A stretch of DNA of 64,000 nucleotides from a virus (taxonomy: Duplodnaviria; Caudoviricetes), in IMG/VR virus record IMGVR_UViG_3300021431_000003, positions 64,001-128,000 of that record, one strand, 5' to 3'. The first letter of the stretch is position 1. Every line of letters begins with the position of its first letter. This document shows positions 10,301 to 59,397 of the stretch, in pieces. The translations under genes and the position numbers were made by a program. The notes below the pieces were generated by a model that was not told the origin of the DNA, did no database searches, and saw only the letters and a program-made list of their open reading frames with translations.

Positions 10301-13300
10301 CTAAACCTTGACCGACATTCTTAACAACTGTCCATACCATAGGAATAAGATTCTTACCTATACCATAAAGAACCTTTGGCACAAAGTCACCATATACAGT
10401 AACGAAACCAGTCTTCCAAAGTTCTACAATATGAGCTCCAACCTTAGCAAGGCTATTCCAGAATCCGCTAAGACCTCTATCTGGTGCAGCATATTCTCCT
10501 TCATTATGAATCCAATTATGAACCTTCTCAAATTTAGATTTAAAGAATTTTCTAATAGGATTAACGATACCAGAGATTATACCACCCTCATATTCACCAG
10601 TAGTTTTATTCTTGACACCAAAGATTTTATCTTTAGCTTTAGCAAGCCATGGCTTAACTTTTTCACGAATCGCAGGTAATATATCTTCTTTAATGAATCC
10701 TACTATTAATGGAACGAATACACCGCCAACAAATAGCCACTTGATAATCTTACCAATCTTAGAATCCTTCTTACCTTCAAAATTCTCTTTATCTTTTCTT
10801 AATTGTCTAGCATCCATTCTGTCGAAGAATCTACCGATAAAAGTATCCTGTTCTTGGTTCTTTTCTTTCCACGCTCTTACAGCATCAAGCTTACCTGCAA
10901 CAGCATTTCTAATACCAGATTTAAGAGTACCAGTAACAGATTTATATCTATCAGAACCTACTACTTTTTTAATAGCACCTCTCATAAATGTCTCTGTTAA
11001 AGAAGCTTTACCATAACCGTATCTAGCATAGAATCTACCATTAACTTTATTTTGTTCTTTAGCATCTAGTTCGTTGTATTTCTTACCATACAATTCAAGT
11101 GATAATTCATCAAGTCTTTCATCTTTATTCTTGATAGCAAGAGATATAACTTTATCTCTTTTAGCATCAGATGCCTTCTTTTTAATTTTTTCTTTAGTAT
11201 CATTAGCCCAGTCACTTACCTTAGCTGCAGCGGTTCTAATACCATTATTTATTTTATCTCTTACACCTTGAAGCTTAGATTGAACTCCATTTCTGATATT
11301 ATCAGAAATGCTATTCATAAGTTTCTGATATCTACCATCAATGAATCTTTCAACAAATACTGCATGAATTGCTTCTTGTTCTTTTTCAGTTAAGTCTTTC
11401 CAAAGAACATTATTTTCATGACCATTCTTACCAGCATATAGTTCTTTTACTAATTTCTGCAGTTCTGGACCTGCTTCTGGTTTAGCATCTTTATTATTAG
11501 AGTCAATTATAAATAACCTAGACCAAGCATATTCAGCTTTTCTCTTTAGATTCTCTCTGACTTTCTTCATTCTTTCTTCTTTAGTACCTTCAGCATTATC
11601 ATTAAATAAGATATTACCAGTACCTTTAATAAGTTTGATGGTTTGTCCTAGTTTACTTCTAACAAGACGTTTACCGATTTGCTTGATACCACCAATTATT
11701 CCACGACCGAATACTTGGTTTTCTTTCTTAGCTTGGATGTACATATTAACAAATTCATCATGAACTTGTTTTTGTTCATCCTTAGTACAAGCACTAAATC
11801 TACTTACACCAAGATTACATCTTTTTGTAATAGCATCAAGGAATTCAAACTTATCAGCTAATTCTTCTTTAAGCTTATTTTGAACCTCTTCGCTAGCTGT
11901 ATTAGCACTTCTTAGTGCTTCTAATGCAGATTGGTAAGAAGCTACTTCCTTATTCCATTCTTTTTCAGCTTCTTGTTGATATTGATAATTATTAAGTCGC
12001 TGAATCAAGGAATTATCATCAATCTTATGGTCACTTAAAGCAAGACCTACATTAAATCCTATCTTCTTTACACCTTTAATAGCACCACTGATAATAGACT
12101 TACCATGGGTTCTAATAGCATCCTTTACAAATAGAGAATGGATACCTGTAAATTTTGGTAAATCTGGCATAACAATAGGATTCATATATACACCAAGCTT
12201 AAGAGACTTAGCTATCATATCACCGAAAGACATGTAACTATCTTCTATAGTCTTTGGTCTATGGTCAGCAAGATAATCCTCTATGAATTGACGTTTAGCT
12301 GCATCATAAGATACAGGTTGACCTTTTCCAGGAATAACATTATAGCCGTCTACTTTATAATACATTTCAAAATTATAAGGAGTTTCTCCACGATAGATAA
12401 GAATCTTACGTTTCATTACCTTAATCTTCTTGACAGCTTCTTCTTCACTGCATTTTTCTTTATTCATTATCTTCTGCTTATATGTCTGAATATCATCTCT
12501 AATTCTTTCAGGAACACAGAGTTCTTTCAATGCGAGACCATCAAACATTTGACAAGCAGTATCAATTAATTCATTTATTTCATTATTAAGTACATTAGCC
12601 ATTCTAGTATCAGGAGCTAAATAACCCTTTAAGTCACCAGTAAGCATTGGAATATAATCATTCCAAAGGTCATTAGAAATAAAGTCACCCGCCTTAATAG
12701 AGTCTTTATTAATAGAACCTATCTTATCATTCTTACCAATAACATAACCACCATTAGCAGCATTTTCTTTAATAGCTTTTTGTGATCTAGAATCCTTTAC
12801 AGATTTAATATAAGCTTCTTTAGAACCATACTTAGCTTGTTCTTCTTTGGATAACTTGTCATATCCATTACCAATTGTTAAATCATAGTGGATGTTTTCA
12901 AGTATTTCTTCCATCCTTTTAGCTGCAGTATTTACAGTTTCAAGAGGAGAATCTTTACCCTTCCAGAAAGCTTTTTCTGCCTCAAAAGCAACTTCTTCAT
13001 CTGTAAGGCCTACACCTTTATGAGCTAATTCACGATTAGCCATAAGTTTAAGATTTCTAACAGCCTTCTTATCTCTAAGGTCTACATTAATACCCTTAGA
13101 TAATAAGTATTGCTGTACAGTCATCTTACTTCTCTCAATATCTTTATAATCTTTAGATGCTTTATTCATTTTATCTCTATGAAGTCTTAATTCCTTCATA
13201 ACAGATTTCTTAGTAGCATTATCGATGTTTCTAGTATTCAAGAATCTTTCAACATCTTTGTCTCTACCTTCTTTAAGCATCTTAATGATTCTTTTAGCAT

Positions 13301-16300
13301 CTTTACGGTCTAAATTATTTCTAAGCTCTTGACCTAATACATCATAAGAAGAGTTTACAAAATTATCAATCTCACCACTATTTTCGTCATAAGAAAGAAT
13401 ATTTAACAGAGATTCTATATCACCGCTAGTATAATCAGCAAGCTTTTCATCTATAGCAGACCATTGATCTGTTTTAGCCATTTTTAACTTACCTCTAGCA
13501 GCTAATCTCTGTCTTGCGGTCATATCATCTGCACGACCTCTTCTAATACGATTAGCCTTTAATCTACCACCAATACCTTCATCTCCAAGAAGTCTGAAAG
13601 GTTTAGTAGCTACACGACCAAGTCTACCAGCAATACCAATAGCACCGCTACCGATTTTACCAGCTTTTTCAAAGACGCCTCCAAGAAAATTATTTCCAGC
13701 TGCATTAGCTCTAATCTTCTTGAATATATCTAATGTGAAATCCTTGATATCAACAATTGTATTTGTTAATTCTTTAAAGATAGATTGAGCACCAGAAGTC
13801 ATAGGAGTTATTATATTATCACGAATAGCTCCGAATAATCCTCCTTCTCTCTTGGCATCTTCTCCATCACCATTCTTTTTACCAAAGATTTCATCCATTG
13901 TCTTATCTATAATTGTTTGTCCGAAACCCTTTAAAGGTTTAACAATATTATCATTTAATGCTCCTCTTACACCACCTCTACGTTTACCATTCTCACCTTC
14001 TTCACCAAGTAAGAAGTCTTTGAATTTATCAGTAGAAGTGACATATCCTGCAGTAGCACCAATAAGTGCACTACCAACAAGACCAAAAGGACCAGGGAGG
14101 AATAATGCTGCTGTAGCTGCACCAATTCCCATATTTTTAGCACCCTTCTTGAGTTTGTCTACATTCTTATCAGAGAATATACCACCCTCACCAAAGAGTG
14201 ACCCTTGGAAGATTTCAGAATTCTTTGCGAATCCTAAGCCTGTACCGATTAATAAACCACCTAATGGACCAAGAGGAGTTAATAAGCCAGCTGCCATACC
14301 AGCCATACCACCCTTAGCCATATCAGGAGCAGCTTTTTGAAGTTCTTTAGAGATTAAACCAGTATCTTTTCTCTTAGGATTACCATTAGAATCGACAATG
14401 ATTTCACCAGTTTTCTTATCCTTTTCTACATCACCAAATAAGAAGCTAGCAAAAGAACCAGTAGATTTGGTTAAAGTAGAAGCAGCACCTACTGCTGCAC
14501 CAAGTAATGGACCGCCAACTAATAAGCCAGCTACACCGCCTAATACACCTCTAGATGCCATATTACCTAAGAAAGCAGCTCTCTGTTTATCATCTTCAAG
14601 AGTTGTCCAATCAGTAAGTTTATTAATGTCAACCTGCTGAATTCTTTCTTTAGCCTCAGCATCTAACTGTTGATGCTGAGCTAATTCTTCTGCTGTTAAA
14701 CCATCATTAGCTTCAGCATTATATCTAAGACCTCTAATGAAGTTCTTTTCATTACGAGATTGAAGATTTCTTACAGATGTAGGAGCTGGGTTATAAACTA
14801 CACCACCCTTAGGAATAGTATAGATACCAGTCTGACCAATCTTAGAACCGTTAAGATATTCACCTGCAGAAAGTACAGACTGGAATGGACGACCAGTTCT
14901 ATTTACACCACCTGCAGCCATACCTCTTACATTTATTGTAGAGGCTTTAATACTAGCTAATTTCCTTTCAGCTTTTTCAAGTTTAGTTCTTAAATCATTT
15001 TCTAATCCAGGATTGCTAGCAAATAAAGGAGCTTGACCAGCTAATTGATTTCTTAATCTAATGACTTCAGCTTCAGCTTTAATTATAGCAGCTTGTTTTC
15101 TTACATTTGCTTCTTCAGAAGTTCTTACACTTATATTTTGACCTTCGTTAGAATGAGTCCTAATATAATTCAATCTGTCCATTGCATTTGCAGAAATATG
15201 CTGATTATAATCATATACGTCAGTACTTGCTTTAGATGCTATTTCAGCTCTTCTTAAAGCTCTTTTTTGTGCAGATGTTAACGATGGTGTTGGTGAAGGA
15301 GAAGGATTGCTACTAGAAGATTCTGGATTAGTTATTTTACCAGCTAATCTCTTAGCCTCATCAATTTCCTTTTTCCACATAGCATGTACATCATCTGCAT
15401 TCTTTGCCATACCTTTACGGAATCCAGCTGTAAAATGAGAGAGTAAACCTTCTTCTAAGATATTACCTTCAGAGTCCACATCACCAAAGATTTTATTTTT
15501 GATTTTGTCTACATGAGGCTTTATTTTTTCATTATAATAGTCCTTAACTGGACTCAAAAGTTCTCCAATTTGTTCTTGAACCTTTTTGAAGAATTTTTGA
15601 GTGTGTTCTTTCATTAATTGCCAGAGAGACTTTTTCTGGTCATCAGCTTTCAAATCTTCACCATAAATAAGATTACGTAACCAAGCATCTGTCTTTACAA
15701 TAGTACCAGTTACTTTATCCATAACAGCAAAGTTAGTCTTCTGAGTAAACCATTTAGCTGCAATAGCAAGTTTCTCTGTAGTACCAGTAGCTTTAGATAA
15801 GTTCTCCATTAAGCCCTTATCTTTATCATATTTATCAGTGGCTCTCTTAAGCTTATCAGTATTTTCTTTACCAATAAGCTCTTCCATTTTCTTCCACTTT
15901 TCTTTTTCTTTCTTAGCATCCTCTCTCTGCTGATTCAGTTTGAACTCAGATTCATACTGTGCACCTTCACCATAGTAATCTGATACAAGACGAGATATAC
16001 CAATCTGGTCACCTTCAGATTGATAATTATAAGAGTCAGTAATAAAGCTAACAGACTTGCCCTTTCTACGTGCCTGCTCCTCCACTCTCTTTATATTAGA
16101 TTCAAAGCTTTCTTTAGCTTTTTCTTTAGCTTTTCTTTCAAGCTGTTCATAATATCTAGATGTATACTTTTCATCAGTAGTGCCATTATATTTTACTATA
16201 GCACCATTTTCATATAGTATATCATTGAAATTAATTGGACTTGGTGGGTTTGGTCCACTATTGTTTACATTAAAAATAGAAAGATTTCTAAGATAAGAAG

Positions 16301-18218
16301 AATATGCTCTGATAGTATTAAGACTGCTTCCCATACTTCTAAGATATTGATATAGTGTAACGCCATATTCGTCTTTAGCTCTTAAAAGAACCTGAGCAGT
16401 AGGCATTTCTTGAATATGTCTTTCATTCATATCACCCTTAGCATCTACATAGCTCTTACCATGATATGACTTAGCATCTCCAGTAATACCTTCCATAGCA
16501 GCGAGCATTGCAATACCGCCTTGCTCATTAAGCTGCTTAATGGCACTATTCTGACTTCTAAGAATTTCAAGTAGTTGTCCATCAACTGCAGATATATCTG
16601 GACCACTGAATCCTTTTCTCATCTTAAGTCTTCCATTATCATCTTTTACATAACGAAGACGTTCACTGTGTTGGAAAATCTTCTTCATAGATGTGTAGAT
16701 AGCTTTTTCTGCAGTGGTCAAATCAGATTCTCTAAGAGAACCAAAATCGCCTGCAGCTTGAAGCTTAAGAGCAAGAGATTGGACTGCTGTATTAGCTCTA
16801 TCATATTCTTCTTTAGTAGCATACATAGAGTCAAAACTTCTATTAGTACCAGCTTGAATAGTGCCCTTGATAAGAGATTCTGTACCACGTTGAGCAGATG
16901 TAGTGATACTATCATATGCCTTCTTAGCAGATTTCATACTAGTCCATCTACCAGTAGTGTAATCAAATATCATTTCTTCGCCACCTGTCATAGCAGATGT
17001 CATTTTACGAAGATAATAAGGGATTACATCTATAATAGCCTTCTTAGTAATACCATCAAAAGGAATAGCACCCTTTACATATTTATTAGGGTCTACAGAT
17101 TCATTAGAACCAGTCTTAATTCCAAGAATCTTACCTAATAGACCAGCTAAACCAGCATCTTCTTTCTTTGCTGCAGCATTAGCTTTAGCAATAAGAGAAG
17201 GAACAAGATTTTCAAGAGTCTTATTAAGAGCCTTTGCTGCTTGGTCAAATCCTTTACCAAGTGCTTTATTAACAGCAGCCTTAGATAATTCTCTACCAGG
17301 GTTAGCAAGCATTGTAGCAAGTAAGTTAGCACCTTCAATGCCACCATCGCCAAATAACATATTGAGACCTGGGATAGCCTGCATTAATTCATTACTAGCA
17401 TTTCTTCCTATATACTTACCATATTCTCTAAGATTAATTACACCACCTCTACCGATGATATCATCATATCCTATCTTTTTTTTCTTATTAGGATCTTCAA
17501 TTTGTTTAGCATATAAATTACGCTGCATTTCGAGTAACTCATCCATCTGTTTAGTGAGTTTAGCAACGTTATTATCTACATTAGCCATAAACTTGTTGAG
17601 ATTTTCATTCATCTGGTTCTGTACTTTTGCAGTCTGCTCTGCATTCTGTTTTAAGAAACCAGTGATGTTTTGTAATCCACCATCAAGTTTATTTATAAGA
17701 CGTTCATTTTGAGTATACAGTAGCATTGTATTCTCTTTAGAAACATCCATCTGAGCTTTGCCAGTTTTGACGATAGCTTCTGTAGTAATAGCGGTCTGTA
17801 ACTTACTGTTCTTTTTAACAGCAGTAGCAATAACCTTATCACCATCAGTAACATCTTCATTACCGAAATCAAAGTCATCATCATCGATGTCCATACCTTG
17901 CATTAGGTTACCGCCATATTTATTCATAACTTCCAGCTCTTTATTCTTAGCATAGAAGTCACCAGTAGTAACACTATATACAATAGAATCAAAGCCAACT
18001 CTAGCAGCATCCATTACTTTATTATCAGTAATAGTCTTCTTAATTCTAGCATAAGTAGTTCTATAATCTTTAATAGAATGATATGCTTCTTTAAAGACTT
18101 CTTGATTCTCATTCTTAAAGTCTTTAACATAGGTAAACTTCTCAGACAATACATCTGCAGTAGTATAAGCAACCGATTTGCCTAAGTTAGCAAGATACTT
18201 TTGAACCTTAATAGACAT
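4338..18218 (-). CDS. Giant tape-measure-like virion protein with C39-like peptidase, phage tail lysozyme and NlpC/P60-like domains
   Basis: 4626 aa, largely helical, Gly-zipper/TM segments; SGCGPASAASVL...HYVVARG (C39-like), AAACGAIGNWVQE...GGGLMQWT (Phage_lysozyme2-like), DCSGMMSAV...GDIRF...GHTDMY (NlpC/P60-like). Confidence 0.8.
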   Translation of the reverse strand: MSIKVQKYLANLGKSVAYTTADVLSEKFTYVKDFKNENQEVFKEAYHSIKDYRTTYARIKKTITDNKVMDAARVGFDSIVYSVTTGDFYAKNKELEVMNKYGGNLMQGMDIDDDDFDFGNEDVTDGDKVIATAVKKNSKLQTAITTEAIVKTGKAQMDVSKENTMLLYTQNERLINKLDGGLQNITGFLKQNAEQTAKVQNQMNENLNKFMANVDNNVAKLTKQMDELLEMQRNLYAKQIEDPNKKKKIGYDDIIGRGGVINLREYGKYIGRNASNELMQAIPGLNMLFGDGGIEGANLLATMLANPGRELSKAAVNKALGKGFDQAAKALNKTLENLVPSLIAKANAAAKKEDAGLAGLLGKILGIKTGSNESVDPNKYVKGAIPFDGITKKAIIDVIPYYLRKMTSAMTGGEEMIFDYTTGRWTSMKSAKKAYDSITTSAQRGTESLIKGTIQAGTNRSFDSMYATKEEYDRANTAVQSLALKLQAAGDFGSLRESDLTTAEKAIYTSMKKIFQHSERLRYVKDDNGRLKMRKGFSGPDISAVDGQLLEILRSQNSAIKQLNEQGGIAMLAAMEGITGDAKSYHGKSYVDAKGDMNERHIQEMPTAQVLLRAKDEYGVTLYQYLRSMGSSLNTIRAYSSYLRNLSIFNVNNSGPNPPSPINFNDILYENGAIVKYNGTTDEKYTSRYYEQLERKAKEKAKESFESNIKRVEEQARRKGKSVSFITDSYNYQSEGDQIGISRLVSDYYGEGAQYESEFKLNQQREDAKKEKEKWKKMEELIGKENTDKLKRATDKYDKDKGLMENLSKATGTTEKLAIAAKWFTQKTNFAVMDKVTGTIVKTDAWLRNLIYGEDLKADDQKKSLWQLMKEHTQKFFKKVQEQIGELLSPVKDYYNEKIKPHVDKIKNKIFGDVDSEGNILEEGLLSHFTAGFRKGMAKNADDVHAMWKKEIDEAKRLAGKITNPESSSSNPSPSPTPSLTSAQKRALRRAEIASKASTDVYDYNQHISANAMDRLNYIRTHSNEGQNISVRTSEEANVRKQAAIIKAEAEVIRLRNQLAGQAPLFASNPGLENDLRTKLEKAERKLASIKASTINVRGMAAGGVNRTGRPFQSVLSAGEYLNGSKIGQTGIYTIPKGGVVYNPAPTSVRNLQSRNEKNFIRGLRYNAEANDGLTAEELAQHQQLDAEAKERIQQVDINKLTDWTTLEDDKQRAAFLGNMASRGVLGGVAGLLVGGPLLGAAVGAASTLTKSTGSFASFLFGDVEKDKKTGEIIVDSNGNPKRKDTGLISKELQKAAPDMAKGGMAGMAAGLLTPLGPLGGLLIGTGLGFAKNSEIFQGSLFGEGGIFSDKNVDKLKKGAKNMGIGAATAALFLPGPFGLVGSALIGATAGYVTSTDKFKDFLLGEEGENGKRRGGVRGALNDNIVKPLKGFGQTIIDKTMDEIFGKKNGDGEDAKREGGLFGAIRDNIITPMTSGAQSIFKELTNTIVDIKDFTLDIFKKIRANAAGNNFLGGVFEKAGKIGSGAIGIAGRLGRVATKPFRLLGDEGIGGRLKANRIRRGRADDMTARQRLAARGKLKMAKTDQWSAIDEKLADYTSGDIESLLNILSYDENSGEIDNFVNSSYDVLGQELRNNLDRKDAKRIIKMLKEGRDKDVERFLNTRNIDNATKKSVMKELRLHRDKMNKASKDYKDIERSKMTVQQYLLSKGINVDLRDKKAVRNLKLMANRELAHKGVGLTDEEVAFEAEKAFWKGKDSPLETVNTAAKRMEEILENIHYDLTIGNGYDKLSKEEQAKYGSKEAYIKSVKDSRSQKAIKENAANGGYVIGKNDKIGSINKDSIKAGDFISNDLWNDYIPMLTGDLKGYLAPDTRMANVLNNEINELIDTACQMFDGLALKELCVPERIRDDIQTYKQKIMNKEKCSEEEAVKKIKVMKRKILIYRGETPYNFEMYYKVDGYNVIPGKGQPVSYDAAKRQFIEDYLADHRPKTIEDSYMSFGDMIAKSLKLGVYMNPIVMPDLPKFTGIHSLFVKDAIRTHGKSIISGAIKGVKKIGFNVGLALSDHKIDDNSLIQRLNNYQYQQEAEKEWNKEVASYQSALEALRSANTASEEVQNKLKEELADKFEFLDAITKRCNLGVSRFSACTKDEQKQVHDEFVNMYIQAKKENQVFGRGIIGGIKQIGKRLVRSKLGQTIKLIKGTGNILFNDNAEGTKEERMKKVRENLKRKAEYAWSRLFIIDSNNKDAKPEAGPELQKLVKELYAGKNGHENNVLWKDLTEKEQEAIHAVFVERFIDGRYQKLMNSISDNIRNGVQSKLQGVRDKINNGIRTAAAKVSDWANDTKEKIKKKASDAKRDKVISLAIKNKDERLDELSLELYGKKYNELDAKEQNKVNGRFYARYGYGKASLTETFMRGAIKKVVGSDRYKSVTGTLKSGIRNAVAGKLDAVRAWKEKNQEQDTFIGRFFDRMDARQLRKDKENFEGKKDSKIGKIIKWLFVGGVFVPLIVGFIKEDILPAIREKVKPWLAKAKDKIFGVKNKTTGEYEGGIISGIVNPIRKFFKSKFEKVHNWIHNEGEYAAPDRGLSGFWNSLAKVGAHIVELWKTGFVTVYGDFVPKVLYGIGKNLIPMVWTVVKNVGQGLVDYAKDVFKGRQGALEIQIPDTSPGEQVNVQATSIDVPNTVGGNVQLTSPGYSANINFPSEAISKNGNKISGNKNEDGTSTYTNESTGKQVTSKISGDYYYIGTNASGQQIFKDSKTNKAYTLDSNGGYIPLSEYNELADESLSENAAYQQQVALENANALDADYVGRSSESKMAGLVGRLAARAGNMGVLNGAKGIKAMTGATKILGLPFKALKKIPFTPTKIVGRLGEGVTNIAEKATKPIAAIHGVAMNAVGKVGDKITNGAFSKIGQVLIDRETAAAAKIAEKNALKAAKAEADAAKAAAKKAWKADKLAEKIASGDANFFEKAIDFIKKSVGKMKEKIAKVLKNEKIAKLFGKGINENADEIAEKVAKGTGDVIGDSVDDIAKQGSTAAAKGAASVLSIVMMVADFLLGVDNCRNLLGIVTPKPSFVERLTGGIINIIPDVIMTLAEAVTGASFGGAAAVGAVLAALSIIATLIISIDSIRDALVGMIINVLDLIPGIDMSKIKEERAQAKAAVEAYNTKNNTNLSIEDYNNLIGNKTITTKIGDGAKDVWSAMFGYDSASKSVILEKTANLESKGKSDKVRKKLSTIFSSIWQYFGEKDFNYSDQYDEDGNELKGKEKLNANKFKFNEVGTQVISNLNAILVAEDESVIKEVASNVTNFTGPWDASHHLKDVYNSGKDDPNSQFDVDEEHSDWKLIRAMAGVCAIINEIFEPCGKKAEITKAVLDAMMPAYFTTNEMSKIQIEGVDTSKYSVDMSKYDEKSVLDAATSYDGIDKYGVATNANANDKLSPLTGSLDPLMKGLERGFGWLKNTNPLERVGIYFGNLINNSIKSLTGGFEGIEEFFKSLASKNSSINRGIDELSILPTSKNYWKIELDKKNPFMSGLFNFVESMNRVVKAPFSLATASLAAGMNAVQSKSNTSSTATMINNTGSSSNGTTTFSSSGTNNATASNGGVLSGLWQGIKNTASKIMSGVKGFFGLGRDKDNSNDSGYGSDPYHIYQRAYSGSYRTAGDSESQTIADSGCGPASAASVLRMYGKNGDMRNAVNYALNNKYKEVNGGTYPEYFNSYLNKNGIKTNSNANNADVINSLAQGKPVILMGRDSQNSGRTPYGSKYSHYVVARGLDKNGNVIVEDSEDRRGSTRYSLADTLQNSTVRITTGRGKNNESLANKYISSVSAVTNSTISSMIYNAAKSLGVNFSSSSNNTTNNNDSTGVNVRGDAKAAIGKSYTATLEGESVTLTMDEGGAEIYSFLVNECGCSTAAACGAIGNWVQECGGGTIENIKPVALKGYIAEGGGLMQWTLPWNDHPAWARAHGFSDWEWTGQLAHVKEELTDGSNWSKNRIKKAASQIRSMGFNVANTVDEYKKLTKPDEAAVNFERGLEGSADFWGSVAASEAYKNIKYKHLYCFKRRLFALAVYGLVTGQSSSGSGRGVNEDKLSITGRAKDPINFANSGEIERQEKLAEIGQDNLWTAGVPVDNTTQNTNTNDKIIDSNKFISIDKLKSISETTKEDTTATDSTTSTSTDNNKGVATGLIGLLGEYTRRATKDIFGNFYDALYGTETNNNTTPSDTTAAYNGNDIIYAAAMVFEALYNADPDLTYDCNCVKYNDLVCRDGTVLEHERPDCSGMMSAVIHYMGYYTSRWNAEKNYSDTYHGEGFGTQNWNNASSNTCIYDKDGNLSSDWEVLKFDPNDVQPGDIRFHSGHGHTDMYVFTNSKGTRFGFNAGSGDAGGSIGNGMYNSYCLAKYYLDNNNQLPNPDSCHGNRGEPGAWTIQDNECKLVLRYKGSGNGRFGRGSARNGKTDLAKLNRIPISKRKITDSNTIPNIVTRDVNRDLITGAYRTGYGRGTGPLKSLDDIRSSRVVRSSNNTNAHNNTIVSPHTGKGSIMGADNNTYTQYGGDNLANIIRLAAIIADNSNKIDDILAVLATIAVNTENTTTAIDNSNNKKIPNGSKNGLSALRTALNNNNSGEDIINAIYQIAKS

Positions 18219-45406: not shown

Positions 45407-48400
45407 TTAAATACTGGTTACAGTACTAGAGAGAGTAGAATAATTCAGTGCAGTAAGTTCGAAGATTTCAGCCTGAGCAAATGGTCTGAATACAACTTCG
45501 ATTGCTGCATAGAAAATCTTATTTTCTAGTGCTGCATCATCTTGTACATACTTGAACGTAATCTTTGCAAACTTATTTCTCCAAGGCTTCATAGCAGTCT
45601 CGACAGCATCCTTATATACAGTGAGGTCATCAGCTGTAATGAACTGATATCTAGCTGCTGGGCAAGCCTTACGAATAGCCTGCATCATCATACAAACAAG
45701 AGCAACATTGTTCCAGTAAGAGAATTCACTCTCAGTAGGATTCATAGTATACTCAGTTTCGATAGAGAATCTATCATCATAGTAGCAACCATAGTTAACT
45801 CTAAGGTCACACATAAGCTGCTTCTCGTTGATGATAGTAGCATCATCTGATGGATATACACCACCAACGTTATTGAGAGAAGTCATCTCAGAAGTTGGAT
45901 AAATCTTAGGAATGTAGTTTACAGTACCCTCAATGATATTACCGATAGTAATACCATTAGCAATACCAGCAAATACATCTCCGATACTGTTTCTAAAATG
46001 ACTGATATAAAGGTTAGAAAGACCATAGGTACCAGTAACCTGAATTACTCTGTTATCATATGGATTTCTAATCTTATAGTAGAGACAAGTAACTGCAATA
46101 TGCATATCTCTTACATAAGCATATTCGGAAGTTTCAGATGTGAGGTCAAGACCAGTTTCAGTTCCTGGAATAATCTCTGCACAATCCTCATAACTCTTAA
46201 CCTTGCCGATACCCATGTCCATATAGCACATGAAGTCACCGCGATAAGCCGCAAGTCTCTGCATTGCAAGCTTAACATCATTATCGTAGTTAGCATCAAA
46301 TACTGCATTCGGGAAATAAATATCAAGGTTAAAGATATCCTTATCGAATTCACCAGCAAAGAATCTGTAATACTGTCTCTGATAAATCTTATCAATAGAA
46401 TATGGAATCTTTACTTCGGTAAGAGTATAAGTTGCTGTCTTGATATTCTTATCAATCCAAACAGACCACTTATTAGCTACAGCATATGCCTTTGCGAGAG
46501 TACCATCTGGATCCTCTTCAAGTGTAAATACTCTAGACATTTGCTGAGTTTTAGTAGTAGGAACAATATAACATGGCGTTCCCGTCTGGTCATCAACGGT
46601 GAATCTCTTTGCCTCAATCATAGGAATCTTAACAGATACAAAGTTCTCAGGAACGATTGCAGCATCGTTAAGGTCGAATGTTTCGGAAGAAACAATAAAT
46701 CCGTTCTTATGACCAGTAATAGCCATAATTTCAGACATAGAATTTCCGTACAGACCAGAATTGCTATCAGGTTTATTCGTATAGTCTTCATCGAATACGA
46801 ATACTGGTACAATTGCAGCATTCTTAAATGCTCTACCAGACCACTGTTCATCAGCTGGATTCTTAGCAAGATTATAACCATTAGAACCAAATTCAAGTCT
46901 TTCAAGAATACCCTTATTAGTTCTAATCCAGTTATAATAATAACCTTTTGCTACGAGATTTTCATCCTTAGACGTCATATTCTCCCAATCACAATATGCA
47001 TTAACAGTAATCGTATCGTTATCAAATACATCAAGATGTGAGTAGTCATAGAGATATGCTACTCTCTTGAGGAGATTAGATACTGCATAAGAACTGAATG
47101 CGTTGTACTTACCATTGAGAGCATGACCAAACAGGATATCATAAGTACCGATAAGGTCATTATCACTTGTACCAAGAATTAACTGGAGAGTTTCGAGAAG
47201 TGCATCATAAGCTTCATAATAAGTCTTAACAGAAATCTGGTTAGAATTATAATTTACTGTACTTTCAATATCAAATGTATAGCCAGTACTGTTATTTCTA
47301 GTATAAGGATTGAGAGAGAATGAGAATGTCTCAAGTTTCTTAGAAGTAGCGTAATTATAAACAGTAAGCTTATAAATAGATTTCTTCATAGTAACAGACG
47401 AAGTAGTATCATACTCAATACCGATAGTCTTGATAGATTCACCACGACCATTATCGAAAATAGAGAACAGTGGGAATACCCACTCAGAAATGATATAACC
47501 ACTAGCCTTAGTCATGAGGTCATTAATAAGTCTCGTGGTGCTATCATAAGGAGTAGTATCAATAACATCTTCACCCTTATTATACTTAGAAACAACAATT
47601 CTATTGTTTTCATCTACCGTAGCAATACCCTGAATAATTGCACGTTCAAATACGCCACTATCGACATATTCCTTAGTGTTCCAAGAATCTTTTACAATAT
47701 CGTAGAGGTCTGTTTCATTAGTAAAGAATCTGCTAATATCTACATTTTCAGCAACCTGTTTAAATGTAGGGTTAGAACCGCCATTTGTAGAATCTACTTC
47801 CCAATGACCAGTATATTCTCCACTATCTTCTTCGGTTTCAGCTACTACATATTTCATAATAGTATAGCCGCCACCTTCAGTAGAATAGTCCTTAAACATT
47901 CTATCTGTATTAGAAACAGTATTGATACCAGCACTTGTTTCTTTAATGATATCGGTCTCAGCGTCAAATACAGAAGAATAAGTCTTCTGTTTGCCACTAG
48001 TAAGACCAGTTGTAACATTTACTATCTTTCTTACAAGGTTTTTACCATCTTTATTGATATCGACAACTCTATTGTCATTATCATAATAAACAGACTGAGA
48101 AAAACCAGAAAGAATACCAGTAGTAGTATTCGGGTCGGAGATAAGCTTAGAAAGAAATCTACTATCAGGTGTATCTTCATTAGCTACAACGTCGATAATA
48201 TAATTCTTATAGAGGTCATATCTCTCCTTATGTTCATCAAGCTTAACATTTGCAAAAGTATAATTGTTATCGTTCTTTACACTAAACATAAGAGGAGCGA
48301 TAGAATACTTTTCAGGAGCATCTGCTGCTACTTCGATAGACCTGATTAAAGCTTCATTATTTTCTTCAGTAGTAATAGTTACTTCCTTGTACTTAGTAAG

Positions 48401-48721
48401 AACAACAGCAAGAGTTGCATTACCAAGAGTAGCGTCATCAAGAACAGCTCTCTTTGCAAGAATAGCAGCACCGTTATTAATATTCATAGAAGCCTGGAAC
48501 AGAGGCTGGCCATACTTCTTGAAATCAATGTTATCCTGTGTGCCATATCTATCGTAGAAATTGTTACCATAAGATAAAGTGATACCTTCAGGACCCTTAA
48601 CAGAAGCAAAGGTACTGAGGTAGGTAACTGCATCGGCAGGATTTGTAGTGGTAACTGGTACCATTGCAGTAGCCTGAGAGTTATCATACACTTTAAATTG
48701 TGTACCAGGATATCTACTCAT
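45407..48721 (-). CDS. Tail sheath protein
   Basis: N-terminal YPGT, FASVKGPE..FYDRYG; C-terminal FDANY..RGD..D and IFYAAIEVVF typical of contractile sheaths. Confidence 0.82.
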   Translation of the reverse strand: MSRYPGTQFKVYDNSQATAMVPVTTTNPADAVTYLSTFASVKGPEGITLSYGNNFYDRYGTQDNIDFKKYGQPLFQASMNINNGAAILAKRAVLDDATLGNATLAVVLTKYKEVTITTEENNEALIRSIEVAADAPEKYSIAPLMFSVKNDNNYTFANVKLDEHKERYDLYKNYIIDVVANEDTPDSRFLSKLISDPNTTTGILSGFSQSVYYDNDNRVVDINKDGKNLVRKIVNVTTGLTSGKQKTYSSVFDAETDIIKETSAGINTVSNTDRMFKDYSTEGGGYTIMKYVVAETEEDSGEYTGHWEVDSTNGGSNPTFKQVAENVDISRFFTNETDLYDIVKDSWNTKEYVDSGVFERAIIQGIATVDENNRIVVSKYNKGEDVIDTTPYDSTTRLINDLMTKASGYIISEWVFPLFSIFDNGRGESIKTIGIEYDTTSSVTMKKSIYKLTVYNYATSKKLETFSFSLNPYTRNNSTGYTFDIESTVNYNSNQISVKTYYEAYDALLETLQLILGTSDNDLIGTYDILFGHALNGKYNAFSSYAVSNLLKRVAYLYDYSHLDVFDNDTITVNAYCDWENMTSKDENLVAKGYYYNWIRTNKGILERLEFGSNGYNLAKNPADEQWSGRAFKNAAIVPVFVFDEDYTNKPDSNSGLYGNSMSEIMAITGHKNGFIVSSETFDLNDAAIVPENFVSVKIPMIEAKRFTVDDQTGTPCYIVPTTKTQQMSRVFTLEEDPDGTLAKAYAVANKWSVWIDKNIKTATYTLTEVKIPYSIDKIYQRQYYRFFAGEFDKDIFNLDIYFPNAVFDANYDNDVKLAMQRLAAYRGDFMCYMDMGIGKVKSYEDCAEIIPGTETGLDLTSETSEYAYVRDMHIAVTCLYYKIRNPYDNRVIQVTGTYGLSNLYISHFRNSIGDVFAGIANGITIGNIIEGTVNYIPKIYPTSEMTSLNNVGGVYPSDDATIINEKQLMCDLRVNYGCYYDDRFSIETEYTMNPTESEFSYWNNVALVCMMMQAIRKACPAARYQFITADDLTVYKDAVETAMKPWRNKFAKITFKYVQDDAALENKIFYAAIEVVFRPFAQAEIFELTALNYSTLSSTVTSI

Positions 48722-51047: not shown

Positions 51048-52073
51048 TTATCGTCTTACCATTACTACCTTAATAGCACTTGTGATTTCTGTATCAGTAT
51101 GAAGAGTAATCTTCTTGCTTTCTGGATTATAGCTCCACTTAATATCACTAGGAACACCTTCTGTAGTGACATTTGTTTTTTGTGTACTATCCTTCTTAGC
51201 AATGATTTCGTCATACTTGTAATCAGATTCAGTTGCTTCAGATGTACCAAGTACGTGCAATTCGAATACACGGTTTTCATGATAATCTTCTACAAGCTTA
51301 GGAATGAGTACTTCTGCATCGATTGTTGTATCTGCTGCATTAACAGTAATCTCATCAGAAATCCACATATAAGTACCCCAAGGATTCTTACCACAGAGCA
51401 GAGTTTCAAAGATTTCAGAGATAGTCATACCCTTAAGAGAATCTCCTTCTTTAAATCCACCTATAGGATATTTAACAGTAGAATTCAATACAGTTTTGCC
51501 ATCTACAGTTTCACAAGCATAATCATCTTCTTCTACTCCATCCTTAGGATATAACATAAGGCACATAAGTTGAGCAAATGTAAGCTTGCGGAATTTAGTA
51601 CCCTTCTTAATGCCACCTACAGATACAGTAGTACCATTTTCAGATAAATCTCTAAAGATATCTGCATCAGCGATATGCATAAGAATATGATTAAGTTCAC
51701 ACTTAGTCACATATCTATTGTCTTCTTCCCAATGCATAGGATGAATACATCTATCGTGCGGTGGGGGAGGTGGAGGACAAGGTTTAGGCGGTGGGCATTT
51801 ACGTCCAGGAACAAAATAAGTATTTGGTACTGGATTAGGCTGTGCATCACCATAACCGTCTACATAATAATCTGGTCTATATGGACCAGGAGTAGGTTTA
51901 TCAGAGTAAGGTCTATTGATAACTTCTGGTCTCCTGAAATATTCTCTTGGATTTGGAGCAGGCTTTGGTGGTGGAGGACAAGGGCAACAACTATCATCCA
52001 CACCAGGAACCAATTCAGGTTTATCATTATCAATGAAGACACTCTCAAATTCATCATAGAAATCGTTAGCCAT
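51048..52073 (-). CDS. Pro/Cys-rich late protein with two GG-motif repeats
   Basis: CCPCPPPPKP, CPPPKPCPPPPPPH; VGGIKKGT..LMLYP and IGGFKEGD..TLLCG. Confidence 0.75.
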   Translation of the reverse strand: MANDFYDEFESVFIDNDKPELVPGVDDSCCPCPPPPKPAPNPREYFRRPEVINRPYSDKPTPGPYRPDYYVDGYGDAQPNPVPNTYFVPGRKCPPPKPCPPPPPPHDRCIHPMHWEEDNRYVTKCELNHILMHIADADIFRDLSENGTTVSVGGIKKGTKFRKLTFAQLMCLMLYPKDGVEEDDYACETVDGKTVLNSTVKYPIGGFKEGDSLKGMTISEIFETLLCGKNPWGTYMWISDEITVNAADTTIDAEVLIPKLVEDYHENRVFELHVLGTSEATESDYKYDEIIAKKDSTQKTNVTTEGVPSDIKWSYNPESKKITLHTDTEITSAIKVVMVRR

Positions 52074-53433: not shown

Positions 53434-54084
53434 CCTCCTTTATCCAATCCATTGAACTGTAGCATTTGTTGCTCCCCAAGGAGCACCAGGTATACTTCCT
53501 TCTGGTTTATTTATAGTAATAGATGTAAGAGCTGCACCACCAAATGCACTATAACCAATACTAGTTACACTACTAGGTATAGTAATAGATGTAAGAGATG
53601 TGCAACCAGCGAATGCACTACTACCAATACTAGTTACACCATCAGATATAGTAATAGATGTAAGAGATGTACAACTAGCAAATGCACCATCACTAATACT
53701 AGTTACACTACCAGGTATAGTAATAGATATAAGAGATGAACAACCACTAAATACACCACTACTACCAATACTAGTTACACTATCAGGTATAGTAATAGAT
53801 GTAAGAGATGTACAATTAGCAAATGCACCATTACCAATACTAGTTACACTATCAGGTATAGTAATAGATGTAAGGGATGCATAATAACTAAATGCACCCT
53901 CACCAATACTAGTTATACCATTAGGTATAGTAATAGATGACACATTTCTAGAAATAATACTTTCTAATATCATATATCTAACGCCTCCTTTATCCAATCC
54001 ATTGAACTGTAGCATTTGTTGCTCCCCAAGGAGCACCAGGTATACTTCCTTCTGGTTTATTTATAGTAATAGATGTAAGAGCTG
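53434..54084. repeat. Exact 101-bp direct repeat (53434-53534 = 53984-54084)
   Basis: Identical C-terminal cap, stop codon and downstream RBS of both LRR genes. Confidence 0.95.
53440..53973 (-). CDS. BspA-type leucine-rich repeat protein (LRR_5), ~6 repeats
   Basis: [21 protein letters not shown] repeats; start moved to 53973 after AAAGGAGG. Confidence 0.88.
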
Positions 54085-56530
54085 TACAATCACTAAATGC
54101 ACGACTACCAATACTAGTTACATTATTAGGTATAGTAATAGATGTAAGAGATGTTTTTCTAAATGCATAATCGCCAATACTAGTTACACTATCAGGTATA
54201 GTAATAGATATAAGAGATGTACAAACATCAAATGCACCCTTACCAATACTAGTTATACCATCGGGCATAGTAATAGATGCAAGAGATGTACAATTATAAA
54301 ATACATAATCACTAATACTAGTTACACCATCGGGTATAGTAATAGATGTAAGAGATGCACAACCAGAAAATGCATTTCTACCAATACTAGTTACACTATC
54401 AGGTATAGTAATAGATGTAAGAGATGTACAATTAGAAATTGCATAACTACCAATACTAGTTACACCATCAGATATAGTAATAGATGTAAGAGATCTACAA
54501 CCAGCAAATGCACCATCTCCAATATTAGTTATACTACTAGGTATAGTAATAGATGTAATAGTTCTTTCTATATATTCTTTTAGATGATCCATATCAAATT
54601 TTATAGAAAAAATGTTTTCTGTAATAAAATTATATACACCATTAGCAGTAGGTACTTGTCTATCGGTACTATTATCATTTATTGTTGTAGTAACATCTTC
54701 ATTATGAATTAATATATTAGTGGCACCCCAAGGATAACCAGTTCTAGATTTATAGTTTTCGAGTAAAAGTATATCACAATGATTAAATGCACCATCACCA
54801 ATACTAGTTACACTATCAGGTATAGTAATAGATGTAAGAGATCTACAACCAGCGAATGCAGTACCACCAATACTAGTTACACCATCATGTATAGTAATAG
54901 ATGTAAGAGATGCACAACCACCAAATGCACCGTTACCAATACTAGTTACACTACCAGGTATAGTAATAGATGTAAGAGATGAACAACCACTAAATGCACC
55001 GCCACCAATACTAGTTACACCATCAGATATAGTAATAGATGTAAGAGATCTACAACCAGTAAATGCAGCATCAGCAATACTAGTTACACTACTAGGTATA
55101 GTAATATATGCAAGAGATGCACAACTAGAAAATGCAGTAGCACCAATACTAGTTACACTACTAGGTATAATAATAGATGCAAGAGATGTACAACCAGCAA
55201 ATGTATTATAACCAATACTAGTTATACCATTAGATATAGTAATAGATTTAAGAGATGTACAATTAAGAAATGCAGCATTACCAATACTAGTTACCTTATT
55301 AGGTATAGTAATAGATGTAAGGGATGTACAATAACTAAATGTATTACTACCGATACTAGTTACACTATCAGGTATAGTAATATATTTAAGAGACGTACAA
55401 TTAAAAAATACACCATCACTAATACTAGTTACACCATCAGGTATAGTAATAGATTTAAGAGATGCACAATAATTAAATGCACCAGCACTAATACTAGTTA
55501 TACTTGTATTAGATCCTATAATAACATGTTTAAGAGTATCTGTACTATCTATAAAAGTTTTAGTGTCAGCAATTGTTGTAAATGTATATAATTCAGGATC
55601 ACCTTCACACATTACATTTATTTTAGTATCATCTAAACTGCTACTAATAGAAGATAATGCATTATATACAGCTTTTGCGGTAGGCACTTGTCTATCTGTA
55701 TTGCTATCATTTATTGTTGTAGTAACATTTTCGTTATGAATCATTATACTATGAGCATCCCAAGGATAACCAGTTCTAGATTTATAGTTATCGAGTAAAA
55801 GTATATCACAATTAGTAAATGCACTATCGGCAATACTAGTTACACTACTAGGTATAGTAATAGATGTAAGAGATTTACAACCACTAAATGCATATTTACC
55901 AATACTAGTTACACTACTAGGTATAGCAATAAATGCAAGAGATGTACAACCATCAAATGTATTATCACCAATACTAGTTATACTACTATTAGGTATAGCA
56001 ATAGATGCAAGAGATGTACAACCACTAAATGTACTACTACCGATACTAGTTACACTATCAGGTATATTAATAGATGTAAGAGATGTACAACTAGCAAATG
56101 CACCATCACCAATACTAGTTACACCACTAGGTATAGTAATAGATGTAAGAGATGTGCAACCATCAAATGCATAATTACCAATACTAGTTACACTACTAGG
56201 TATAGTAATAGATGTAAGAGACGTACAATTTTGAAATGCCCAATTATAAATACTAGTTACACCACTAGGTATAGTAATAGATGTAAGAGATGTACAACCA
56301 CTAAATGTACTACTACCAATACTAGTTACACCATTAGGTATAGTAATAGATGTAAGAGATGTACAATTAGCAAATGCATTATTACCAATATTAGTAGTTA
56401 CACTACTAGGCATAGTAATATATTTAAGAGATGTGCAACTAACAAATGCTGCTATACCAATACTAGTTACACTATCAGGTATATTAATAGATGTAAGAGA
56501 TGTACAATTACTAAATGCACCAACATCAAT
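53520..56530 (-). repeat. ~35 coding tandem repeats of 69 bp in four blocks
   Basis: Recurrent CCAATACTAGTTACAC...GGTATAGTAATAGATGTAAGAGATG...AAATGCA on the + strand. Confidence 0.95.
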
Positions 56531-56884
56531 AACAGTTACACCAGCATTAGATCCTATAATAACACTTTTTGGTTTATTATTAGAATTAATATAAGTTTTT
56601 GTATCATATAATGTATCAAACTTATGCAATGTTATTTCATCGTCTATTACATTTATTTTTGTTTCATCAATTTTAAGTGGCTCTACTTCAATATGACACC
56701 ATTGTTCGCCATTATAATAGTATACTGAACCTACACTGATTGTAGTTTCATCTACTTCTTTTTCTGAAATTAATATACACGTTCTACCTATGAATAAATT
56801 AGAGTCAGGTAATGTATTAACTTTTTCTGGGGAAGCTAATTTGATTTCATTTCCCTGAAAATCTAAATGTGTATTAATTTTCAT
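53990..56884 (-). CDS. Tail-fibre/receptor-binding protein with three BspA-type LRR_5 blocks (~11+11+7 repeats)
   Basis: 23-aa repeats; inter-block caps YKSRTGYPW and VPTAKAVYN-type fibre motif; N-terminus like the 52092-53426 protein. Confidence 0.88.
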
Positions 56885-56905: not shown

Positions 56906-57463
56906 TTAATTATTAGAGAATGGGTCATTAATAACATACTCCTCGTATCCAGATAAGTTACATTCACAATGCTGATATGGAGATACTGGTTCTGGACACT
57001 GAGGCACAAAATCAGGAATCATACCATCAAAACACTTTACAGGCTTAATAGAAATAATATTTTCAATACCAATTCTAAGAAGCTTGCTTTCATATGCATC
57101 GGAGTAGTCTACAATAATTGCAGTTACGTCAATCATATGAGGTTTATCAATGAGCTTTTCAATACCCTTAGAGCATTCAAAGTCAATGATTCTTGCAGCA
57201 AAAGTGCAAACTCCACGAGTCTGACTAACTGCTTTAATCTCATAAGTTTCATTCTCATGAATGTCAAATGTCTGTACGTGACCATGACAATCCACATAAC
57301 GAACAGATAATACTGTTCTTCCTACAATACCAACTTTGCCATGATAATGTGGATGACAATGATGGTGAGGAGGGCATGGATGAGGTGGTGGACAAGGCCC
57401 AGGACCGCAATTATAATCATCAAAATGTGGTACATTCTGATAGTAATAAACAGGCTTCTTCAT
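56906..57463 (-). CDS. Cys/Pro/His-rich late protein
   Basis: CGPGPCPPPHPCPPHHHCHPHYH; AAAGGAGG RBS; late promoter 57492-57503. Confidence 0.78.
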   Translation of the reverse strand: MKKPVYYYQNVPHFDDYNCGPGPCPPPHPCPPHHHCHPHYHGKVGIVGRTVLSVRYVDCHGHVQTFDIHENETYEIKAVSQTRGVCTFAARIIDFECSKGIEKLIDKPHMIDVTAIIVDYSDAYESKLLRIGIENIISIKPVKCFDGMIPDFVPQCPEPVSPYQHCECNLSGYEEYVINDPFSNN

Positions 57464-57491: not shown

Positions 57492-57535
57492 TATATGTAT
57501 GTTTTGTTAGAATAGATAGGTGGAACTTTATAATA
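57492..57535. promoter_or_regulatory. Divergent late-type promoters
   Basis: AACAtacataTAa (-, 57492-57503) and AACTttataaTAa (+, 57524-57535). Confidence 0.65.
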
Positions 57536-57561
57536 AAATGCTCAAAAGGAGGTATTCTCAT

Positions 57562-59397
57562 ATGCTTATTGACCAAGCTAAATTTATATATGACTTTACT
57601 ACACCAGATGTAGAAGTAACAACAGAAAGTGCTTTATTAAATGAAGCAGCATCTACTTCGGAACGTTTTAAAACTGAAGTACTTGATGTAGATAAGTTTA
57701 TTAAGAATAATATGCTTAAAGAAGTATCTAATCCTGTATTCTTTAATGGTCCAACTCCAACAGAAGATGGATTGTTAAGTAATGAAATCTTTGGTATTAC
57801 TAAAACTGAACGTGCTGGTATTTATGCTTATATTAATCTAGGTGGTCAGTTTATTCAACCGTTAATTTATAAGACATTACTTAAACTCAATGGCAAAATT
57901 GCAGATGTAGTAAATGGTACAGATTATTTTATCATTAATGATAAAGGAGAACTTATACAGAGCGATGATGGTGATACTGGTATTGATTGGTTAAAGAAAA
58001 ACTTCTCTAAGATTAAATTTAAGAAGAATGAATCTGCATCTAGAAATAAGAGAATTGACTTTATTGAGAAAGTAAAAAATAAGATGTGGGTAGATAAGTG
58101 GATTGTTATTCCAGCTTATTATAGAGACGTAGATACTAGAGATGCTGGTATCGGTGTAGGTGAAATCAATAAACTCTATAGTAGCTTGATAATGGCTACA
58201 AAAGCACTTAAGGAAACATCTGGTTATGGACTTACATTAAGCGATGTTACTAAAGCAAGAGTACAGAATATCTTAGTACAGATTTTTGATTGGTTTGGTA
58301 ATGGTACTACTATTAATGGGCAAGAAACTCCAGCTAACTTACCTGGTAAGATGGGTCTTATTAAACGTGGTACATTATATAAGACTATTGACTATTCTGC
58401 TCGTCTAGTTATGTCTGCTCCTGATGTAAGTGGAGAAGATATAGATGACTTGATGATTGACATGGATCATTGTGCATTACCACTTGCTGCAGCACTTTGT
58501 TGTTTCAAACCATTTGTCATGTTCTGGTTAAGACGTTTCTTTGAAAATCAGTTTGCTGGTAAATTAGAGTATCCTATTATGATTAATGATAAAGAATCTA
58601 TCATGATACCTCTAGTAGATTATCAAATTGCATTTTCTGATATAGAGATTGATAAACAGATTGAACGTTTTATTCATGGTTATAGTAACCGTTTTATTCC
58701 TATTGAAATTCCAGTAGATAAAGAAGAGTTTGCTAGACGTTCTAAGAATAAGGAATATAAAGATTCTGTAACTGGTAAAGAAATGAAACTCAATCAGATT
58801 AATTTCTATATGTATTTTACTGGATATAAACTTAATAATTCTGAAGAATATAAAGAGAATAAGCAAGAATATTCTGAGACACTTAAAGTAAGAAGACGTA
58901 TTACTTGGTGTGACCTATTTTACTTAGCAGCATGTGATATTACATCTGATAAAATGTGTCTTGTAACTCGTTTCCCTATTGACTCTTATCTTAACCAGTA
59001 TCCTACTAAAGTAAGAATTAAGTCTACTGTAAAGACCGCTCCTATGGTTACTCAGATAGGATTTGAGGATAACATGAAACTCTATAAGTGGTATCCTGTT
59101 ATTGAAGATACTGATATTAACTCTAATACATCTCCAGTATTTGAAGACACACTTTCTATTAGTAATGGTCTTATCGAAGCAATGGGTATGGACTATGATG
59201 GTGATACAGCAATTGTTAAACCAGTGTACACAATTGAGGCTAATCAGGAATGTGAAAAACAGGCTAATGCAAAGATTCAGGTTCTTGGTATGAATGGCTT
59301 CACAACTAGAGGTGTATCAAAAGAAAACATTCTTTGTTTATATGAACTTACTATTCATCCAGATAAGAGTGTTAAGTTTGTTAATCCAGAGTTTTAA
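57562..59397 (+). CDS. RNA polymerase beta' subunit, N-terminal catalytic part (probably virion RNAP)
   Basis: DGLLSNEIFG, VIPAYYR, GKMGLIKRGTLYKTIDYSARLVM, VTRFP, catalytic GMDYDGD; start moved to 57562 after AAAAGGAGG. Confidence 0.9.
   Translation: MLIDQAKFIYDFTTPDVEVTTESALLNEAASTSERFKTEVLDVDKFIKNNMLKEVSNPVFFNGPTPTEDGLLSNEIFGITKTERAGIYAYINLGGQFIQPLIYKTLLKLNGKIADVVNGTDYFIINDKGELIQSDDGDTGIDWLKKNFSKIKFKKNESASRNKRIDFIEKVKNKMWVDKWIVIPAYYRDVDTRDAGIGVGEINKLYSSLIMATKALKETSGYGLTLSDVTKARVQNILVQIFDWFGNGTTINGQETPANLPGKMGLIKRGTLYKTIDYSARLVMSAPDVSGEDIDDLMIDMDHCALPLAAALCCFKPFVMFWLRRFFENQFAGKLEYPIMINDKESIMIPLVDYQIAFSDIEIDKQIERFIHGYSNRFIPIEIPVDKEEFARRSKNKEYKDSVTGKEMKLNQINFYMYFTGYKLNNSEEYKENKQEYSETLKVRRRITWCDLFYLAACDITSDKMCLVTRFPIDSYLNQYPTKVRIKSTVKTAPMVTQIGFEDNMKLYKWYPVIEDTDINSNTSPVFEDTLSISNGLIEAMGMDYDGDTAIVKPVYTIEANQECEKQANAKIQVLGMNGFTTRGVSKENILCLYELTIHPDKSVKFVNPEF

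Follow-up and report, generated by a model that had tools for sequence, protein, structure and literature searches.

How can a phage keep the DNA of a tandem LRR array nearly identical from unit to unit and still carry different residues at a few fixed positions of each unit, and does such an array serve to vary host attachment? The question was raised by a preliminary description of a 64,000-nt stretch of viral DNA (hereafter, the window), which proposed about 35 LRR units of 69 bp in two genes, homogenised by gene conversion or unequal crossover and loosely analogous to lamprey VLR assembly. We consider it probable that the locus encodes a virion adhesin and owes its diversity to homologous recombination at the scale of unit, block, and module. 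As far as can be read from sequence, it looks like a probable enzyme-free route to vary host attachment. What appears to be new here is the exchange of an LRR block for a DGR-targeted tail domain after a conserved hinge, and the presence of the same cassette in an unrelated siphovirus.

Source genome and organization of the locus

The window corresponds to bases 64001-128000 of a virus record of 223,528 bp that carries direct terminal repeats (completeness 100%; G000). An RNA polymerase beta-prime fragment at window 57520-59397 found its best matches in Listeria, Bacillus, and Staphylococcus jumbo phages (~32% identity), which places the source phage among AR9/phiKZ-type jumbo phages; its host is probably a member of Bacillota. 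The public runs containing the LRR locus were gut metagenomes, one of them labelled sheep gut (runs with a small share of the locus were left out of the habitat assignment), and the source phage is a ruminant-gut jumbo phage.

The two LRR genes, their modules, and the flanking genes are listed in Table 1. The first ~65 aa of the 964-aa protein showed 30-34% identity to the N-termini of the 444-aa gene product and of P0006, an alternative allele. The ATG start of the 177-aa gene is preceded by an AAGGAGG site, and the terminal 101 bp of the two LRR genes, including stop and ribosome-binding site, are identical. An AAC[AT]-N6-TA motif at window 57492-57503 (minus strand), upstream of the 185-aa gene, resembles AR9 late promoters; if it is a true AR9-like late promoter, then the LRR genes would lie within a late operon.

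Table 1 Features of the LRR locus (positions in the window)
Feature	Position	Strand	Remarks
964-aa modular LRR protein, probable fibre/adhesin	53990..56884	-	anchor, LRR block, hinge, LRR block, hinge, LRR block, cap
N-terminal region of 964-aa gene, probable virion anchor	56540..56884	-	homology of first ~65 aa
LRR block 1, 11 units, last one shortened by hinge	55808..56539	-	
Hinge copy 1 (DILLL...QVPTA), where relatives exchange modules	55648..55807	-	88% nt identity to copy 2
LRR block 2, 11 units	54776..55501	-	
Hinge copy 2	54617..54775	-	
LRR block 3, 7 units	54062..54532	-	
101-bp exact repeat, copy A: C-terminal cap, stop, ribosome-binding site	53984..54084	-	
177-aa stand-alone LRR gene, 6 units + cap; paralogue of terminal module	53440..53973	-	
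101-bp exact repeat, copy B	53434..53534	-	
Upstream flanking gene, 185 aa	56906..57463	-	conserved, 91-95% identical in relatives
Downstream flanking gene, 444 aa	52092..53426	-	conserved, 87-91% identical in relatives; N-terminal anchor-like domain in common

The 69-bp units and their variable positions

The 35 units were aligned codon by codon, with unit numbering starting at V0. The proposed count was borne out, with 29 units in the 964-aa gene (11 + 11 + 7) and 6 in the 177-aa gene. The tandem period was 69 (TRF), all units lie in direct orientation within open frames, and the arrays are interrupted by two non-LRR hinge copies. Pfam LRR_5 (PF13306) matched the 964-aa gene with E = 5e-269 and the 177-aa gene with E = 5e-50 (877 and 169 bits, respectively; cut-off 27.7), so that the 23-aa LxxIxIPxxVxxIgxxAFxxC repeat stands above the Pfam cut-off in both genes.

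Framework codons were nearly fixed, synonymous sites included, as had been described: ACT was found in 35/35, CTT in 33/33, and ATA in 31/33 cases, whereas the genome-wide usage of these codons was much lower (0.51, 0.39, and 0.19, respectively). The residue was invariant at unit positions 1, 3, 14, and 17. The highest variation was concentrated in positions 5 and 6 (after IG) and 9 and 10 (after AF), hereafter the slots, with 2.3-2.95 bits of amino-acid entropy; positions 4, 7, 12, 15, 21, and 22 varied moderately too. The two slot pairs had been said to differ in most units. This applies to the complete four-residue set, which was distinct in 33 of the 35 units, but individual pairs are frequently reused (28 and 23 distinct codon pairs, respectively). 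The reported excess of T-ending slot codons was also recovered (128/140 vs. 90.8 ± 5.2 expected from codon usage) and is more readily explained if the slot codons derive from T-ending ancestors and have kept changes at codon positions 1 and 2.

The 177-aa protein was modelled as a TpLRR-type solenoid (AlphaFold2, pLDDT 88.5), and the best PDB matches to the model were TpLRR-type structures (4gt6, 4fs7, 4h09, and 6mlx; Foldseek). The predicted model places the slots after the second short strand and off the LxxIxI strand. In a solenoid, corresponding positions of successive units line up as a stripe, and from solenoid geometry and DSSP the slots would lie on one surface.

Framework homogeneity

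We applied identical statistics to 55 bacterial BspA arrays, chosen as best protein matches. The difference between units at four-fold sites was 0.044 in this phage and 0.033-0.133 in six phage arrays, in contrast to 0.19-0.73 (median, 0.52) in the bacterial arrays. The entropy profile along the unit was very similar in phage and bacterial arrays (Spearman 0.87), and pN was 0.49-0.59 in the former and 0.49-0.75 in the latter. Since both the variable positions and their divergence match those of bacterial arrays, the slots correspond to the ordinary x positions of the family; the unusual part is the homogeneity of the framework DNA rather than the location of the slots. An internal contrast to the homogenised array is provided by a second BspA-type LRR locus of the same genome, outside the window (G000:C1:195846-199402), whose diverged 624-aa and 205-aa genes show no DNA homogenisation.

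Four-fold-site differences elsewhere in the phage group were 0.36 between hinge copies, 0.13-0.38 in the tail domain described below, and 0.08-0.38 in flanking orthologues. Because these parts diverge at four-fold sites, neither AT-richness nor a sweep of the whole locus is sufficient to account for the homogeneity of the units. Synonymous divergence between genomes was 0.04-0.09 in units vs. 0.08-0.38 in flanking orthologues, and framework synonymous sites were the most conserved part of the LRR gene between genomes. At 11/11 four-fold framework positions the majority codon was identical in every jumbo locus examined, and also in the siphovirus copy.

Selection on the slots

Pairwise pN/pS over all columns was 3.05 in the source phage, 1.3-2.9 in the six phage arrays, and <1 in all 55 bacterial arrays. 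At the slots of the source phage it reached 5.7 (pairs being non-independent). A conservative parsimony count gave 38 nonsynonymous and 4 synonymous slot changes in this phage (omega ~3, P = 0.016). Slot omega was 3.3 in one relative (L012) and 0.8-1.2 in four others, values that saturation pushes down. Pooled slot omega was ~1.35 (P = 0.054) and that of core positions 0.69 by the parsimony count; by the conservative count, positive selection on the slots was significant in the source genome only. The count of distinct alleles pooled over all phages was saturated and nonsignificant (18/91 synonymous). Taken together, a combination of relaxed constraint and some positive selection on the slots is moderately supported by the sequence comparisons. 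Relaxed purifying selection is general in young protein repeats, for which some positive selection has been described as well (PMC5120217).

Recombination and unit turnover among relatives

Ten related loci and one protein without DNA (P0006) were compared. In the relatives, the LRR locus lies between the conserved 185-aa and 444-aa genes, and its alleles range from 2 to >30 units, arranged as one, two, or three blocks (approximate, pattern-based counts). Genes of the 964-aa and 177-aa types were adjacent in five of the phages compared.

The original proposal that gene conversion or unequal crossover homogenises the units and turns them over is supported by the genome-specific variants, changes in unit number, and identical caps observed. 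The nearest neighbour of a unit was in its own genome in 43% of cases vs. 13% expected, and unit identity was higher within than between genomes, if by a small excess (0.814 vs. 0.802; permutation test, P < 0.001). Thus, the features of a minisatellite in concerted evolution are present: paralogous units are closer within a genome and unit number is variable. The big and small genes had caps that were 100% identical within the source phage and within L016, but only 95% identical between the two phages, which points to separate conversion events. Linkage of rare alleles dropped from 1.28 to 1.0 within ~10 codons; this decay suggests conversion tracts shorter than one unit. A four-gamete test between the two slot pairs, of low power, found no case.

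The locus contains 17 exact repeats of at least 40 bp. The L012 and P0006 proteins differed at 0/857 aligned residues, and P0006 lacked exactly 92 aa (4 units); the junction of this difference is a 59-bp identical tract. Such a four-unit deletion is the outcome expected of unequal crossover and could have arisen in this way, or by assembly collapse. Two other length variants were observed among the relatives. The 444-aa flanking gene has only 146 aa in L014 (13143-13583), with both ends kept (an internal deletion or assembly collapse), and L012 (10621-11580) has a longer alternative N-terminal region (~330 aa; no match in the family search) in place of the short anchor region.

Contig pieces listed from two samples, one of which may be the source sample of the window, showed zero differences to it; rare variants are hidden in contigs. 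These pieces, including a second run of one sample, covered the slots of 21/35 units (the comparison used assembled contigs, and joints from short matches to BspA genes of other organisms were left out). Thus, neither the contig pieces from the two samples nor L012 and P0006, with all slots in common, gave a sign of fast hypervariation within a population, and turnover would be slower than that of an active DGR.

Module exchange at the hinge

The non-LRR hinge comprises ~55 residues and closes each LRR block; 15 copies could be aligned. Four modules were found after it: an internal LRR block, a terminal LRR block plus cap, a 400-aa tail domain (phrog_5302 "tail protein", E = 3e-65), and, in L018, a fibre-like segment. 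After the position of hinge copy 2, the relatives continue with a terminal LRR block, with the phrog_5302 tail domain, a DGR being present or absent, or with another fibre-like segment. The place of the terminal LRR block in LRR-only alleles is thus taken by a DGR-targeted domain in others, and tail-domain alleles retain an LRR block ahead of the tail domain. The tail domain was not found in G000. It had no match among PDB sequences, and its fold model was unusable (pLDDT 29.6); a C-type lectin fold of the L013 tail domain is not claimed. A search of viral_contigs and GenBank phages with the hinge gave no matches.

The L013 tail domain has a 120-nt VR at its end, with the template 263 bp downstream and 13/13 mismatches at template adenines. 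An RT follows the template (RVT_1, 58.5 bits), its frame broken once: within this DGR (L013:5204-6937) a single frameshift near 5975 divides the RT into two ORFs (5715-5978 and 6023-6937), and the gene is decayed, mis-assembled, or recoded. L026 has the same VR/TR pair, with 9/10 mismatches at A, and its RT would fall past the contig end. L023 (6821-6915) and L024 (6573-6670) have the tail domain without template or RT, and an 85-aa gene directly downstream; 16 of 22 differences between the L023 variable region and the L013 template were at adenines. No RT was found in the complete relative G001. The template of the relatives matched the tail domain only, LRR units never being the DGR target. 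Viral DGR targets are mostly tail proteins with a role in host recognition (PMC8144416).

The same modules were found in an unrelated siphovirus-type contig (L108, with Dit, Sipho_Gp37, holin, GH25 lysin, and integrase). Here, LRR block, hinge, and tail domain lie between Dit/Tal-type genes and holin/lysin, directly before the lysis genes. They form an island with GC of 0.33-0.35 in DNA of 0.47-0.50, 76-84% identical in nucleotides to jumbo alleles, with the framework codons of the jumbo alleles in the LRR units. The entire low-GC cassette (L108:4160-6569), common to the jumbo lineage, consists of LRR, hinge, tail domain, and 85-aa and 42-aa genes. Its occurrence both in the jumbo lineage and in a siphovirus-type contig with an integrase implies that the two have a host in common, and is the best evidence that it moves between phage families, with the AT-rich jumbo lineage as probable source. 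The receptor-binding role proposed earlier is favoured by context, since the allelic module is a phrog_5302 tail domain and the siphovirus copy sits in a receptor-binding slot; for the LRR-only allele this context is indirect. The placement of the L108 cassette is the best evidence that the gene may encode a receptor-binding protein. In the literature we found no description of phage LRR_5 arrays with DGRs, or of an interchange of LRR array and DGR at one hinge.

Search for a dedicated diversifier

The locus had been described as working without a recombinase or RT in the window. For RT and site-specific recombinases this could be extended to the whole genome: G000 gave no RT match (PF00078 and the L013 RT as queries) and no tyrosine or serine recombinase (PF00589, PF00239). 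It does, however, encode a UvsX-like recombinase outside the window (G000:12325-13605; phrog_97, E = 1e-35). A template-like copy of an LRR unit was not found in G000, where only a diverged LRR gene matched outside the locus. Silent third-position framework changes affected 4/169 adenines vs. 15/466 thymines (pooled, 34/870 vs. 106/2421). Since silent adenines had changed no more often than thymines, adenine mutagenesis is ruled out for the LRR units. A DGR at the window allele was therefore rejected (no RT, template, or adenine bias), as was a shufflon or invertase (PF00589 and PF00239 absent, all units in direct orientation).

Proposed mechanism and alternative explanations

Under the explanation that we favour, the protein would be a virion-attached adhesin with BspA-type LRR solenoids as binding modules, encoded by a variable host-recognition locus of an AR9/phiKZ-type jumbo phage. 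Ordinary homologous recombination, probably carried out by the UvsX-like protein, would act at three scales. Short conversion tracts among 69-bp units would keep the framework DNA near-identical and spread slot alleles, unequal crossover at identical tracts of 40-100 bp would add or remove whole units, and crossovers in hinge and anchor would trade whole C-terminal modules between phages, including the DGR-targeted tail domain. New slot residues would arise by point mutation and then be tolerated and, in part, favoured; the slots may contact the receptor, and their variants could alter host range. Several results count against this explanation: the conservative count gives significant positive selection at the slots in the source genome only, no four-gamete case was found between the slot pairs, the excess of unit identity within genomes is small, the four-unit deletion could be an assembly collapse, and neutral concerted evolution does not predict that synonymous divergence between genomes is lower in units than in flanking orthologues.

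It is rather doubtful, although worth serious consideration, that the units are instead newly and repeatedly amplified repeats under relaxed constraint, forming a spacer or a low-specificity sticky rod with near-neutral slots, specificity elsewhere, and recombination as a by-product; if the slots drift neutrally, then this is an ordinary mosaic fibre locus. The slots are the usual variable positions of the family, with a pN similar to that of bacterial arrays, slot omega is 0.8-1.2 in 4/6 arrays, G, S, N, D, and A dominate the slots of the source phage, tail-domain alleles still have an LRR block in front, and purifying selection is weakened in new repeat copies in general (PMC5120217). However, in relatives the slots contain many Y, R, K, and E residues, slot omega is ~3 in the source genome and L012, pooled omega is ~2 at intermediate positions (columns chosen after the fact), and the terminal LRR block of LRR-only alleles occupies the position of the DGR-targeted domain. 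A different reading would have the framework DNA itself selected for identity, as a recombination scaffold common to a population-wide pool of units (evolvability). The majority codon constant at 11 four-fold framework positions in all jumbo loci examined and the siphovirus copy would agree with this, as would the hinge and tail domain of the LRR gene differing at 13-38% of four-fold sites, but ~11 four-fold sites per unit give low power and the same picture could result from recent unit spread, AT-biased mutation, or frequent exchange between phages; we judge it quite improbable. Only tentatively, and with far more doubt than belief, do we suggest that selection for recombinability keeps a 69-bp scaffold conserved at the DNA level across the phage population, as an enzyme-free combinatorial receptor repertoire and a functional alternative to a DGR at this position of the gene, exported to unrelated phages.

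The T-ending slot codons (128/140) and the DGRs at this locus in relatives would be accounted for if the NNT slots had been left by DGR-type mutagenesis of adenines, with an AAT-rich template that acts in trans or acted at an earlier time. This is very unlikely, given that the complete genome has no RT or template-like unit copy, silent framework adenines vary no more than thymines, non-adenine positions are variable as well, and the template of relatives matches the tail domain only. Hardly credible, too, is an assembly artefact behind the regularity or order of the array: the exact repeats of at least 40 bp and the breaks of Logan contigs within the array could favour one, but the frame is open over 964 codons with 33 distinct slot combinations, zero-difference contig pieces listed from public runs cover the slots of 21/35 units, and the same architecture recurs in ten independent relatives.

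Comparison with known systems

The phage arrays share the 23-residue repeat, the fold, and the variable positions with BspA/TpLRR proteins of bacteria and protists, and likewise show the repeat-number variation of that family (PMC2843621). They differ in being phage-encoded, with no membrane anchor seen, a far more homogeneous framework, and pN/pS >1. LRR proteins are common in uncultured (gut) phages. In Goslar, gp161, gp86, and gp92 join an anchor to LRR or carbohydrate-binding domains and are proposed to act in host recognition (10.64898/2026.04.21.720040); in the part of that report drawn on here, the jumbo-phage anchor-plus-LRR layout resembles that of the 964-aa protein, the anchor (DUF7941) appears to be different, and neither a homogenised array nor an interchange with a DGR is described.

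By analogy, the mode of working is most likely similar to that of PRDM9 or T-even gp38, and unlike that of VLR. TALE repeats are comparable coding repeats with variable specificity positions. The PRDM9 zinc-finger array, a coding minisatellite in concerted evolution, varies at its specificity positions and in its number of units (PMC2779102); the phage LRR would be a protein-surface binder, with omega of 1.3-3 vs. ~10-14 reported for human PRDM9. In T-even gp38/gp37, conserved motifs alternate with hypervariable segments and homologous recombination swaps segments at the conserved motifs (PMC3157838). The LRR locus resembles this system in having no dedicated enzyme and differs in its tandem 69-bp array, two-residue slots, unit-number change, intragenome conversion, and fold, its function being predicted. 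The tail-protein DGRs of phages (BPP-1 Mtd; PMC8144416) have counterparts in L013 and L026, with VR/TR pairs at the C-terminus of the LRR gene, whereas RT, template, and adenine bias are all absent from the window allele.

The analogy with lamprey VLR could not be sustained. VLR is an LRR solenoid whose conserved framework is used for template-like exchange, and its binding face corresponds to the LxxIxI strand. In the phage locus the slots lie off this strand, no fast hypervariation within a population was seen, and neither a library of silent donor cassettes, nor an incomplete germline gene or expression locus, nor a deaminase was shown; VLR-type cassette assembly was rejected.

The relatives constitute a natural allelic series, in which the same gene in one phage group terminates either in an LRR array that recombines or in a domain mutated by a DGR. 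With this series, two routes to diversity in host recognition can be compared directly, and it can be asked whether identity at synonymous sites is maintained for the sake of recombination. The series also adds weight to the view of BspA-type LRRs as phage adhesins in the gut, previously mostly based on annotation.

Other features of the window

The 1104-aa gene at 45407-48721 had no match among families or phages, and a sheath identity is not claimed for it. The proteins encoded at 51048-52073 and 56906-57463, for which the family search gave no match, have N-termini with Pro/Cys/His-rich stretches (CPPPP-type). A 4626-aa ORF extends over window 4338-18218 on the minus strand.
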